DNA of 63,542 nt, filler included, from Reclinomonas americana ATCC 50394 (GCA_048213135.1; 16 parts of 16 records of this genome joined end to end with filler, not necessarily neighbours in it), one strand, 5' to 3'; counted from the first letter of the whole stretch, positions 32,356 through 51,438 are shown. The notes: generated by a model from the letters alone, not told the origin. Numbers and translations: made by a program.

Positions 32356-32393
32356 ACAATTCATTCACCAACAAACAAGCAACAGCTGTCTTG
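32356..32393 (+). repeat. Truncated copy of a dispersed repeat
   Basis: 38 bp identical to 47351-47388. Confidence 0.9.
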
Positions 32394-32458
32394 AATAGGA
32401 AATGGAGGAAAGCACACGTGACAGAAGCTGACGGCCCCAGCCTCCCATGGCAATCGGC

Positions 32459-33667
32459 TCACAGATGCCTCTCAGGGTCGCCAAACGATCGCTGCACCAC
32501 GACCTCCGCCTCCTCGACGATGAAACAGCGCAGCACCATCTCAGGCAGACATCGTGAGTCCAACTCTTCCTCTTCCTCCTGCTGCTGCCGCTGCATCTCC
32601 TGCACAACCATCATTGCTGAGCGCGCTGCGAAGAGTTCCAGCTGCGCGAGGCCGCATGGAGTGGACCAAACACGCAATCTCTTGTCCGCACTGCCGCTCA
32701 CGATGTGTTGACCATTGGAAGCGATGGCGACTGACTCCACCGAAAATGAGTGTCCCTCCAGTCGGTGCACTTCCTCCCCGCTCGCCAGTGACCACACTCG
32801 CACAGTCTTGTCCTCACTGCCACTCACGACATGCTTGCCGTCGGGAGTGCAAGCGAGAGACCGCACCCATCCAGTGTGCCCTTCCAACCGGCGCACTTCT
32901 TCGCCGCTCGCAACAGACCACACTCGCACTACTCTGTCCTCACCCCCACTCACCACGTGCTGCCCGTCGGGAGAGAAAGCGACAGACCACACCCAATCTG
33001 TGTGTCCCTCCAGCCGTCGCACCTCTTCCCCACTCGCCAGTGACCACACACGCACTGTCATGTCATAGCTTCCGCTCACAACATGCTGGCCATCGCGAGC
33101 GACGGCGACAGACATCACCCAATGAGTGTGTCCCTCCAATCGTCGCACCTCTTCCCCANNNNNNNNNNNNNNNNNNNNNNNNNNNNNNNNNNNNNNNNNN
33201 NNTTAATTAATTAANNNNNNNNNNNNNNNNNNNNNNNNNNNNNNNNNNNNNNNNNNNNCCTCTCCACTCTCAAATGAGCACACACGCACGATCTTGTCCA
33301 TACACGCAGTTACCACATGCCGACCATCGGGTGTGATGGCGATAGACGTAACCCCGTGGGCGTGTCCCTCGAATCGCCGAACCTCCTCCCCACTCACCAG
33401 GGACCACACTCGCACTGTTCTGTCCCATCCCCCGCTCACAAAGTGCTGACCGTCGGGAATGGCGGCCACAGTCCACACCACAAGAGTGTGTCCCTCCAGA
33501 CATCGCACTTTCTCCCCAGTTGCCAGTGACCACACTCGCACAGTCTGGTCGTTTCCCCCACTCAAGACGTGCTGGCCATCGGGAGTGACGGCAACAGCAT
33601 ACACACCCCAGATGTGTCCCTCCAAGATATGCTGGCAGAGGAAGACAGGGCGAGGAGTCGTTGACAT
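32459..33667 (-). CDS. Intronless 7-bladed WD40 protein with conserved tail (paralog of 18698-19794); spans a gap
   Basis: MSTTPRPVFLCQ start, 3 repeats before and 4 after the gap, in-frame tail WSTPCGLAQLELFAARSAM...RCLPEMVLRCFIVEEAEVVVQRSFGDPERHL*. Confidence 0.88.
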
Positions 33668-35044
33668 TGTGCGTGAGAGGGGCGAGAGATGCTGTGCGTG
33701 CGAGATTGAGAGAAAACTGAATGTCCCCTCTTGCGTGACGGATTCTCGACGTCGTCGTCTCCAAGTGCACACGGTGAGTTAATCGAGGATGCATCTGAGG
33801 GAAGAGGGGAATGCACCAATGGCTGTGCTCCAACGCATACGCAGCGCAAACGCTGACGTCGAATTCGAATTCGCGGTCGAAGTATCGTCAAGATCTTGGC
33901 ATGCGCATCTCCATGTGGGCCCCGGATCCGGACCTGGACCCAAGGGAGACAGTGCTATTATCTGCTGGTGCGTCTTGCATGCAGACGCGTACGTGCAGCT
34001 GCATGCAGGACGTCGACTTCGCGAATGAATTCGAATTCATTCCTCAACTTCCAAAGCTCCAGCAGATCGAATTCTCCGCGACTGCATGTAGCAGATTAGC
34101 CTCTACACAGTGGTTACTCTGCCTCTTTCTTTGAAACGAGTGCTTCGAATTCTTCCGAATCCGGACTTTCGATCGCGATCGTTCCGAATTCGTTGGACAA
34201 TCGATTAAAATGGCAGTGGCCTCGCCGCCCTTCGCGTCGTCTACTCTGCCAACGCCGTCGTGGCGGGTGTGATCTCCCTCATGTCCATCTTCTCTNNNNN
34301 NNNNNNNNNNNNNNNNNNNNNNNNNNNNNNNNNNNNNNNTTAATTAATTAANNNNNNNNNNNNNNNNNNNNNNNNNNNNNNNNNNNNNNNNNNNNTTCTT
34401 CTGCTCCCGTGCTGGAGCAGAGGTCAACGTCGGTCTTCCCAACTCCTTGCTCACTGGCCACACCATGACTCAAGTTGCCCTCGCCAGCGACTACTCACGA
34501 TTCATTGTTCCTTGTGTTTCTGTCACACTTACGCAGTGCACGACTCCTTTCCCCTTGCTCGGTGCCAGATTGTTCCTTGTTCACTGGCCACACTATTACC
34601 GGGCAGTTGCTCGTGCCTTTCGTCGCCACCGTTTTCCTCGCTCGACCGTCCACTCATCTGAGCCCCACACCACCTCCTTCTCGTGTTTTTCTCATCATGG
34701 AGACGCCATTCATTCATATAAGTTCCTTCTTGTTGTACCATTCGTCGACGTCGCCACCACCACACCCATATTTTTCTTCGAGTGTGGAGTCGACGACAAG
34801 GACAACTAGAAAGCATAGTAGTGCACAAGTGGGCGCGCAAGCTCAACGTGCACGCACACATTTAAAAAGAAGCATGGAGAAGAAGACAGCAAACAGGGAG
34901 TGGAGCACCCACAAGCAGTATAGCTCACGCGAAACTCAAAGAAAGAAGAGTTGTGGGGTGGGTGAGGTGATTGCCAAGTGTGTTTTTTGTGGAGCAAGAT
35001 AAAAGTGAGCTTGAGAACAAAGGGTGCTGAGTATACAAGGGGGT

Positions 35045-50800: not shown

Positions 50801-51438
50801 TCTTCTCTCCGCACTGTTACAGAAGATCCACAAACAACGACGAGCGCCAACCAGTGATCGCCATAAAAATCTCGCGTGCTGTTCTTCCCAAAACTGGCAT
50901 GTTGAGAATAAAGCATTCTTGTCTCCACTTAGATCACCCACGTTCTCTCTCTCTTTACCGTCACACTGCTGTCCTCTTTTTGCTTCATCGTCACATCCTT
51001 CCACCCAGCACTCGTGCTCCCTTTCTGCTCTCACCCTCATTCTTGTGCACCACATTGATCACTCGTCTCTTCTTCACCCCACATTCTCTCTCTCTCTTTA
51101 CCGTCACACTGCTGCCACCTTCTCGCATCATCGTCACATCCTTCCACCCAGCACTCGTGTCCCCTGTCTTTCCTCCACGCTTTGTACAGATTCTTGGACA
51201 TGACCCCACATTGACCACTCTCGTCCCTCCTTCGCCGACAGTCTCTCCCTCTCCCATTCCCGTTATCTCCACACACTTCTACCCATTCCACGCACCTTGG
51301 TTGTGTCTGTGGGGGCGCGGTCTGAGTGGCGTACATGGCATGATTCGAAGTCGAACTCGCGATGGAGGCCGGCGCCGGCACCACTGGTCTCAGGAAACCC
51401 AGCGCGCCCAACACATTGTGTGCGTGCGCTGCCTCCAT
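47876..51438 (-). CDS. Atypical homeodomain transcription factor (about 5 exons; spans a gap)
   Basis: Spliced KYRRFTKENMSRMSALA...NSTVVEQLAAELGRDFESIYKWFTRRKMR gives homeodomain helices with WF..R. The exon at 51438-51297 joins VLDILSEAAER in phase; the C-terminus is Pro/Ser/Ala-rich. Confidence 0.72.

Follow-up and report, generated by a model that had tools for sequence, protein, structure and literature searches.

Tandem or overlapping palindromic sites are known from promoters, and the footprints left by transposon excision consist of palindromic inserts of variable length (usually 1–4 nt) between target-site duplicates of fixed length. Among the dyad-symmetric promoter elements described so far, NRF1 binds GCGCATGCGC as a homodimer (PMC10810270) and the palindromic CGCG element TCTCGCGAGA is described as driving bidirectional transcription in TATA-less promoters (PMC6192621). 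Hairpin intermediates on the flanking DNA are described for hAT, Transib and MULE elements, and in the element Muta1 the terminal inverted repeat is reported to be 145 bp long, with nine subterminal repeats and a terminal motif that is palindromic (PMC5499845). Very short templated inverted duplications are described at yeast breaks, where foldback in that system spans a 41-nt loop (PMC11724301), and template switching is described as creating and perfecting hairpins (PMC8794818, PMC7954356).

The locus examined here is a 361-bp cluster of palindromes at 33850–34210 of the window, by which we mean the whole stretch of DNA analysed (63,542 nucleotides, filler included). It shares with the NRF1 site and the CGCG element the use of short, GC- or CpG-rich dyad-symmetric words, and the TATA-poor promoters of those elements are matched by the rarity of TATA in this window. 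The NRF1 site is itself made of two overlapping palindromic hexamers and thus has the form X-rc(X)-X, in which a triplet X is followed by its reverse complement and by X again; GCATGCGCA, at 33899, matches it in part. Unlike in these elements, however, the dominant word TCGAATTC matches neither of them, perfect symmetry extends to 20 bp, and eight different words lie within 350 bp. The hairpin footprints (P-nucleotide-like) of hAT, Transib and Mutator-like elements are comparable in their short palindromic additions beside a duplicated target triplet or hexamer, whereas here the insert length is fixed, one word recurs, and neither an element nor a transposase was seen in the ORFs scanned. Similarly, snap-back SD-MMEJ, Pol-delta foldback inversions and quasipalindrome template switching create or perfect short inverted repeats locally and can cluster, but their products usually contain a loop or spacer and represent single events, whereas this locus holds many spacer-less palindromes with a strict period of 6. 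Lastly, the subterminal arrays of MULE and foldback elements such as Muta1 pack many copies of short words, some of them palindromic, into 150–350 bp; in contrast, copy spacing here is irregular, no terminal inverted repeat with target duplication was found, and the array occurs as a single copy in the window.

The window is made of 16 contigs (1.0–8.1 kb) joined by 15 N44-TTAATTAATTAA-N44 spacers, the spacers spanning 8101–61192. The host is a eukaryote, as indicated by short GT-AG introns and by Myb, ankyrin, TPR and zuotin domains in the window. No close relative was found in the protein collections searched, the best identities being 43–46% (zuotin ORF) and 59% (WD40 protein). Rfam and tRNA scans of the whole window returned no match. 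TATA (0.45 per kb) and CTAG (0.42 per kb) are both strongly under-represented in the whole window, and GTGCAC, TGCGCA, GCATGC, CAGCTG and GCCGGC occur 41–48 times each where about 15–18 occurrences would be expected. Elsewhere in the window, coding sequence at 57501–58330 is broken by GT...AG introns of about 50–75 nt, with no Pfam family found for the two ORF pieces tested, and a tandem array at a contig start (31042–31260) encodes GAARAARGG-like or EEQREQREE-like low-complexity repeats. A minus-strand ORF at 54100–55176 weakly matches the 'Predicted AAA-ATPase' family PF09820 (E = 1.2e-8), a mostly prokaryotic family.

The palindrome cluster sits on the shortest contig (33259–34295, 1037 bp), 190–540 bp 5' of the ATG at 33667 of a minus-strand ORF on the same contig that matches Pfam WD40 (E = 7.5e-33). 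The earlier note had placed the cluster upstream of a WD40 paralog, and this position is borne out by that ATG. The WD40 piece on this contig ends in ...SGE, and the piece after the spacer starts with GEEV...; the three blades of the one and the four of the other make up the seven blades of the paralog at 18698–19813. At the level of the predicted protein, the unbroken WD40 repeat phase across the spacer and the three plus four blades, against seven in the paralog, show the contig order at the 33158/33259 junction to be real. The features of the locus are as follows, with the strand given where a feature has one.

32462 to 33157, minus strand: 232 codons (four blades plus tail) of the WD40 gene, on the adjoining contig, with the repeat phase kept over the gap
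33260 to 33667, minus strand: first 136 codons (three blades) of the same WD40 gene, with the ATG at 33667–33665 and the frame running into the spacer gap
33668 to 33785, minus strand: proximal upstream region or 5' leader; a weak alignment links it to the sequence upstream of the paralog at 18698, and the word ACGACGTCG lies in it
33747 to 33754: palindrome CGACGTCG within the shared ACGACGTCG, with the paralog copy at 18623
33850 to 34210: palindrome hotspot, with 30 hexamer palindromes, 11 X-rc(X)-X matches and 14 palindromes of at least 8 bp
33859 to 33873: (TCGAAT)2.5, holding the 14-bp perfect palindrome CGAATTCGAATTCG (33860–33873), with X-rc(X)-X at 33861 and 33864
33889 to 33908: 10-bp palindrome CAAGATCTTG abutting GCATGCGCAT, with X-rc(X)-X at 33899 and the 8-bp palindrome ATGCGCAT at 33901
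33922 to 33932: CCGGATCCGGA, a 10-bp palindrome plus X-rc(X)-X at 33924, with the near-copy CCGAATCCGGAC at 34155
33976 to 34017: chain of overlapping palindromes, namely TGCATGCA, ACGCGTACG (33985), TGCAGCTGCA (33994), CTGCATGCAG (33999) and GACGTCGAC (34009)
within 33976 to 34017: period-10 run TGCAGCTGCATGCAG, part of the palindrome chain
34018 to 34042: TTCGCGAA overlapping the perfect 20-bp palindrome GAATGAATTCGAATTCATTC (34023–34042), with X-rc(X)-X at 34027 and 34030
34067 to 34074: extra copy of TCGAATTC
34144 to 34152: TTCGAATTC, an X-rc(X)-X match with another TCGAATTC inside
34170 to 34206: CGATCGCGATCG, a 12-bp palindrome with X-rc(X)-X at 34170 and 34173, followed by CGAATTCG (34185) and AATCGATT (34199)

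An exhaustive scan of the hotspot returned 11 X-rc(X)-X matches at eight loci. The eight nonamers listed in the earlier note were all found where it had placed them (33861, 33899, 33924, 33985, 34009, 34027, 34144 and 34170), and the matches at 33864, 34030 and 34173 are in-phase continuations into 12-mers; its estimate that about 0.1 would be expected by chance also agrees with the value of 0.09 under uniform composition. As a null model we used 5000 dinucleotide-preserving shuffles of 33850–34210. X-rc(X)-X was observed 11 times against 0.15 ± 0.41 in the shuffles (maximum 5), hexamer palindromes 30 times against 7.0 ± 2.6, and palindromes of at least 8 bp (arms of at least 4) 14 times against 1.9, the observed value being reached by none of the 5000 shuffles in each of these comparisons. 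A chance origin of the cluster was thereby ruled out. Perfect palindromes cover 146 of the 361 bases, the longest being the 20-mer at 34023, the 14-mer at 33860, the 12-mer at 34170 and five 10-mers. Ranked among 1156 sliding windows of 300 bp, the hotspot comes first with 23 palindromic hexamers (mean 4.3, sd 2.9), followed by those at 52749 (16), 56549 (15) and 58151 (14). The window as a whole is not palindrome-rich, with 283 palindromes of at least 8 bp against about 240 expected by our own estimate under uniform composition. Single-strand folding of the hotspot beats that of 100 of 100 shuffles (z = -4.56), and local inverted and direct duplications of 12–23 nt lie inside it. We also considered one large degenerate palindrome spanning the region and rejected it, since the best alignment of the region to its own reverse complement is no more than the 20-mer (score 40; null maximum 36).

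The X-rc(X)-X motifs had been read in the earlier note as a symmetry rule in which X varies. Inside the hotspot the symmetry stands, with X-rc(X)-X found 11 times against once for X-rc(X)-rc(X) and never for X-X-rc(X), but X is not free. Palindrome centres lie 3 bp apart 11 times and are never 1, 2 or 4 bp apart. When the length t of the duplicated flank and the length j of the palindromic insert were scanned together, an excess was found only at t + j = 6, with 5 matches at (2,4), 11 at (3,3), 5 at (4,2), 6 at (5,1) and 6 at (6,0); for t = 3, j = 1 gave 4 matches (1.4 expected) and j = 2 and j = 4 gave none. Because the enrichment is confined to t + j = 6, the X-rc(X)-X signal is described as 1.5–2.5 tandem copies of self-complementary hexamers nested in longer palindromes, and splitting the motif into a 3-bp X is an arbitrary, not a unique, description. 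Palindromic hexamers present in 1.5–2.5 tandem copies place two palindrome centres 3 bp apart and in this way produce the X-rc(X)-X signal. Examples of such tandem hexamers are GAATTCGAATTC, CGATCGCGATCG, GCATGCGCA, GGATCCGGA, ACGCGTACG and GACGTCGAC; some tetramer units occur too (for example TGCATGCA), as does one period-10 run. TRF reported only (TCGAAT)2.5 at 33859–33873 in this stretch, the other loci having 1.5–2 copies.

This regularity is confined to the hotspot. In the rest of the window 42 X-rc(X)-X matches were counted, and the two sister patterns reached 36 and 30, so that the rule does not hold window-wide; of the 1447 period-6 runs of at least 9 nt in the whole window, 77 (5.3%) repeat a self-complementary unit, where we calculate about 4.7% for random hexamers. 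Since the sister patterns are similarly frequent outside the hotspot and self-complementary units are near their random share, no genome-wide symmetry-generating process is seen in these 62 kb.

The constancy of t + j also bears on the name 'footprint' under which the cluster had originally been reported. On that explanation transposons were excised, or double-strand breaks repaired, again and again at this site, and each motif is a scar in which rc(X) was inserted between copies of X when a hairpin was opened or by snap-back synthesis. The hairpin intermediates described on the flanking DNA of hAT, Transib and MULE elements (PMC5499845) and the very short templated inverted duplications described at yeast breaks (PMC11724301) lend it a mechanism, X differs at five of the eight loci, and nested palindromes could reflect repeated events at one site. 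Yet the insert length shows no spread: between duplicates of t = 3, inserts of j = 1, 2, 3 and 4 were found 4, 0, 11 and 0 times, and variable-length hairpin inserts are thus absent, only t + j = 6 being enriched. Moreover, a single word gives five of the 11 matches, a scan of 88 of the 143 ORFs found no transposase, outside the hotspot X-rc(X)-X does not stand out from the sister patterns, and the yeast foldback products, as described in PMC11724301, extend an inverted repeat across a 41-nt loop rather than forming spacer-less palindromes. A collapse test, in which rc(X)-X was removed, gave a best score of 25.6 bits against the other contigs both before and after removal; these equal scores carry no weight, the window being without a homologous locus to match. 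We consider excision or repair scars improbable here. The same holds for an extended form of this explanation, in which a few promoter-proximal spots would break repeatedly, hairpin or fold-back repair would add the reverse complement of the last bases, and palindromes would grow stepwise and nest, for instance from GAATTC to GAATTCGAATTC and on to the 20-mer; the period-6 chains would then represent, instead of binding sites, a germ-line mutational signature that has not been described before, a proposal to which we give similarly little credence.

Period-6 repeats of every kind are raised in the hotspot, with 38 X-Y-X matches against 5.6 expected; about ten of the X-Y-X loci are non-palindromic and eight are palindromic, where about 0.1 would be expected. 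In addition, the arms of the 20-mer and of the 14-mer, as well as those of an 18-mer at 56596, each end in a palindromic hexamer. Both observations favour a non-adaptive local repeat, in which hairpin-forming self-complementary hexamers and tetramers passed through repeated rounds of slippage or short-range template switching and so gave rise to tandem and nested palindromes. The 12–23-nt local duplications, the strong single-strand folding and the capacity of template switching to create and perfect hairpins (PMC8794818, PMC7954356) point in the same direction. Against this, the share of self-complementary units among the 1447 period-6 runs makes no general mutational bias visible, 1.5–2 copies are too few for classical slippage, and the recurrence of one 8-mer at five sites with unrelated flanks is left unexplained. 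We regard such growth of a local repeat as a doubtful explanation.

That recurrence runs counter to the earlier argument that, because X varies, the motifs follow no consensus. The 8-mer GAATTCGA/TCGAATTC occurs seven times in the hotspot (a strand-collapsed count, TCGAATTC itself being found at five sites) and not once in the remaining 62 kb. In 2000 shuffles the commonest 8-mer reached at most four copies, and did so in only 2 of the 2000. GAATTC/TTCGAA accounts for five of the 11 X-rc(X)-X matches and for three of the eight loci, X being different at the other five, and 7 of the 13 GAATTC sites of the window fall in these 361 bp. The X-rc(X)-X motifs are thus not independent of one another in sequence. 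The flanks of the TCGAATTC copies are dissimilar and their spacing is irregular (6, 166, 36 and 78 bp). Other words are repeated as well, CTGCATGC three times and TGCATGCA, GACGTCGA and ATCCGGAC twice each. With regard to TCGA, the two densest windows of the sequence are a cluster at 56.4 kb (8) and the hotspot (7), against a mean of 1.36.

The two WD40 paralogs, at 18698–19813 (plus strand) and 33667–32462 (minus strand), are identical at 83 of 136 residues in their N-termini. They form a pair of seven-blade proteins whose internal repeats are highly similar, with a 126-bp period, and the C-terminal tail of one can be matched to the other only after a change of frame (ORF 32365–32610 against the tail of the 18698 gene), which suggests a frameshift or an intron. 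Their 120-bp proximal upstream segments are weakly alignable, with a score of 20.5 where 200 shuffles gave at most 19. In both paralogs the palindromic ACGT-core word ACGACGTCG precedes the ATG by about 75–80 nt and falls within this segment, the one part of the upstream regions that can be aligned; two more copies of GACGTCGA are found in the hotspot. Upstream homology stops near 33785, about 70 bp before the hotspot; no comparable palindrome cluster was found upstream of the paralog at 18698, where the hotspot is without a counterpart. The hotspot as an insertion relative to the paralog was considered and rejected, the homology not resuming and the best distal match (16.5 against a null maximum of 16.0) lying about 1 kb away.

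The end of paralog homology just before the stretch is nevertheless what an insertion would give, and it is one of the points in favour of a remnant of a DNA transposon end, or of a foldback element or MITE, carrying subterminal copies of a short transposase-binding word. The confinement of TCGAATTC to this locus within 62 kb, an imperfect 23-nt inverted repeat (33861–33883 against 34016–34038, 78% complementary) and the precedent of Muta1, described with subterminal repeats and a palindromic terminal motif (PMC5499845), speak for it too. We consider it unlikely. When the flanks were read, no matching target-site duplication was seen at the candidate ends; BLASTN found no second copy in the window; the paralog homology does not resume beyond the stretch; and the best self-reverse-complement alignment is only the 20-mer. 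With a best inverted pair of 23 nt at 78%, no flank duplication seen and a single copy in the window, the stretch does not, as far as this window goes, show the terminal inverted repeats with target-site duplication and the multiple copies that define a MITE or foldback element, and Pfam transposase families were absent from the 88 ORFs scanned among the 143 ORFs of at least 140 aa in the window.

Other palindrome-rich regions occur in the window. At 56390–56850 the sequence is rich in palindromes and in TCGA, with an 18-bp palindrome TCGGAGCTCGAGCTCCGA at 56596, three copies of TTGCAATTG and a direct repeat of about 27 nt (TGCATCrACyTGTCGTCA...) at about 56452 and 56524. This cluster (56.4–56.75 kb) lies about 100–450 bp 5' of a predicted protein-like ORF with its first ATG near 56845. 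Consistent with the earlier statement that the two hotspots are not homologous, BLASTN between them gave only chance-level matches of 12–20 nt. Weaker clusters lie on one further contig, at 51330–51700, with GCCGGCGCCGGC and two copies of AGATCTAGA, and at 52680–53060, with GCTCGCGAGCTCG, GCATGCGCA and TCCGGATCC and a (GC)7 run at 52637. The four palindrome-rich regions share 4–11 8-mers, no more than random pairs of regions do (7.3 on average, sd 5.2). Identical 12–13-mers at the unlinked loci 4473/34170, 23949/51368 and 42420/52822 were dismissed as not significant, since by our own calculation chance alone should yield hundreds of such 12-mer pairs in 62 kb. A crude codon-usage gene map, trained on 1270 codons, lacked the power to locate genes around the other clusters.

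A metagenome scan for the 20-mer palindrome returned eight loci, three of them one sequence. BLASTN of these loci against the window found nothing beyond the 20–21-mer (24 nt at 96% in the locus L005), tBLASTx found nothing, and their local palindrome counts are ordinary; as candidate relatives they were set aside as chance or unrelated matches. In three of them (L002, L003 and L006) the 20-bp palindrome GAATGAATTCGAATTCATTC directly abuts the ATG of an ORF starting MVDDNNNNN, the loci being otherwise unlike the window.

The presence of similar, weaker clusters on other contigs also weighs against an assembly or library artefact, such as a very short contig formed from concatenated linkers or adaptors or from chimeric reads. 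Suspicion could arise from the small size of the contig (1037 bp) and the many gaps of the scaffold, and from the 16 different kinds of six-cutter recognition sequence in the stretch, with seven EcoRI sites among them. The stretch runs without a break into a genuine gene start, however, and the sequence just upstream of that start can be aligned with its counterpart in the paralog; a vector or plasmid origin was rejected, BLASTN against 72,556 plasmid records having given no match. An artefact is in our judgement highly improbable.

Overall, we tentatively favour binding sites: the stretch may be a TATA-poor promoter in which dyad-symmetric sites are clustered, which we regard as possible though short of probable. 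On this reading, intergenic DNA close to the promoter of a seven-blade WD40 gene would consist for the most part of dyad-symmetric words, to which dimeric or dimer-of-dimer DNA-binding proteins would bind. Direct observation covers the enrichment, where the cluster lies with respect to the ATG, the period-6 signal and the homotypic clustering of TCGAATTC; protein binding to these words, and a role of the region in driving or modulating transcription, are what we infer. Binding sites are favoured because of the position, the homotypic 8-mer cluster with unrelated flanks, the ACGT-core palindrome in both paralogs and the promoter elements with overlapping palindromes that are already known. We also count in their favour the second cluster at 56.4–56.75 kb, which likewise lies 5' of a predicted ORF, the other repeated words, and the hotspot-specific, strictly period-6 form of the symmetry rule. 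Several observations count against them: TCGAATTC is absent from the other 62 kb and so is not widespread as a regulatory word in this sample; upstream of the paralog the cluster is missing, the homology ending before the hotspot; perfect symmetry over 20 bp here and 18 bp at 56596 is longer than that of typical sites; and 8-mer sharing among the palindrome-rich regions is not above the null.

The cluster is real, a statistically extreme local set of short perfect palindromes in 5' intergenic DNA. The X-rc(X)-X count equals a count of tandem self-complementary hexamers, and its use needs period-6 and sister-pattern controls. If the palindromes are products of repair or slippage, hairpin-prone hexamers can build 20-bp perfect palindromes locally, which bears on the origin of cruciform-forming DNA near genes. 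If they are binding sites, the hotspot would be an unusually dense module of perfectly symmetric sites in a lineage that has no close relative in the protein collections searched, with TCGAATTC, TGCATGCAG, GACGTCGA and CGATCGCGATCG as candidate cis-elements.
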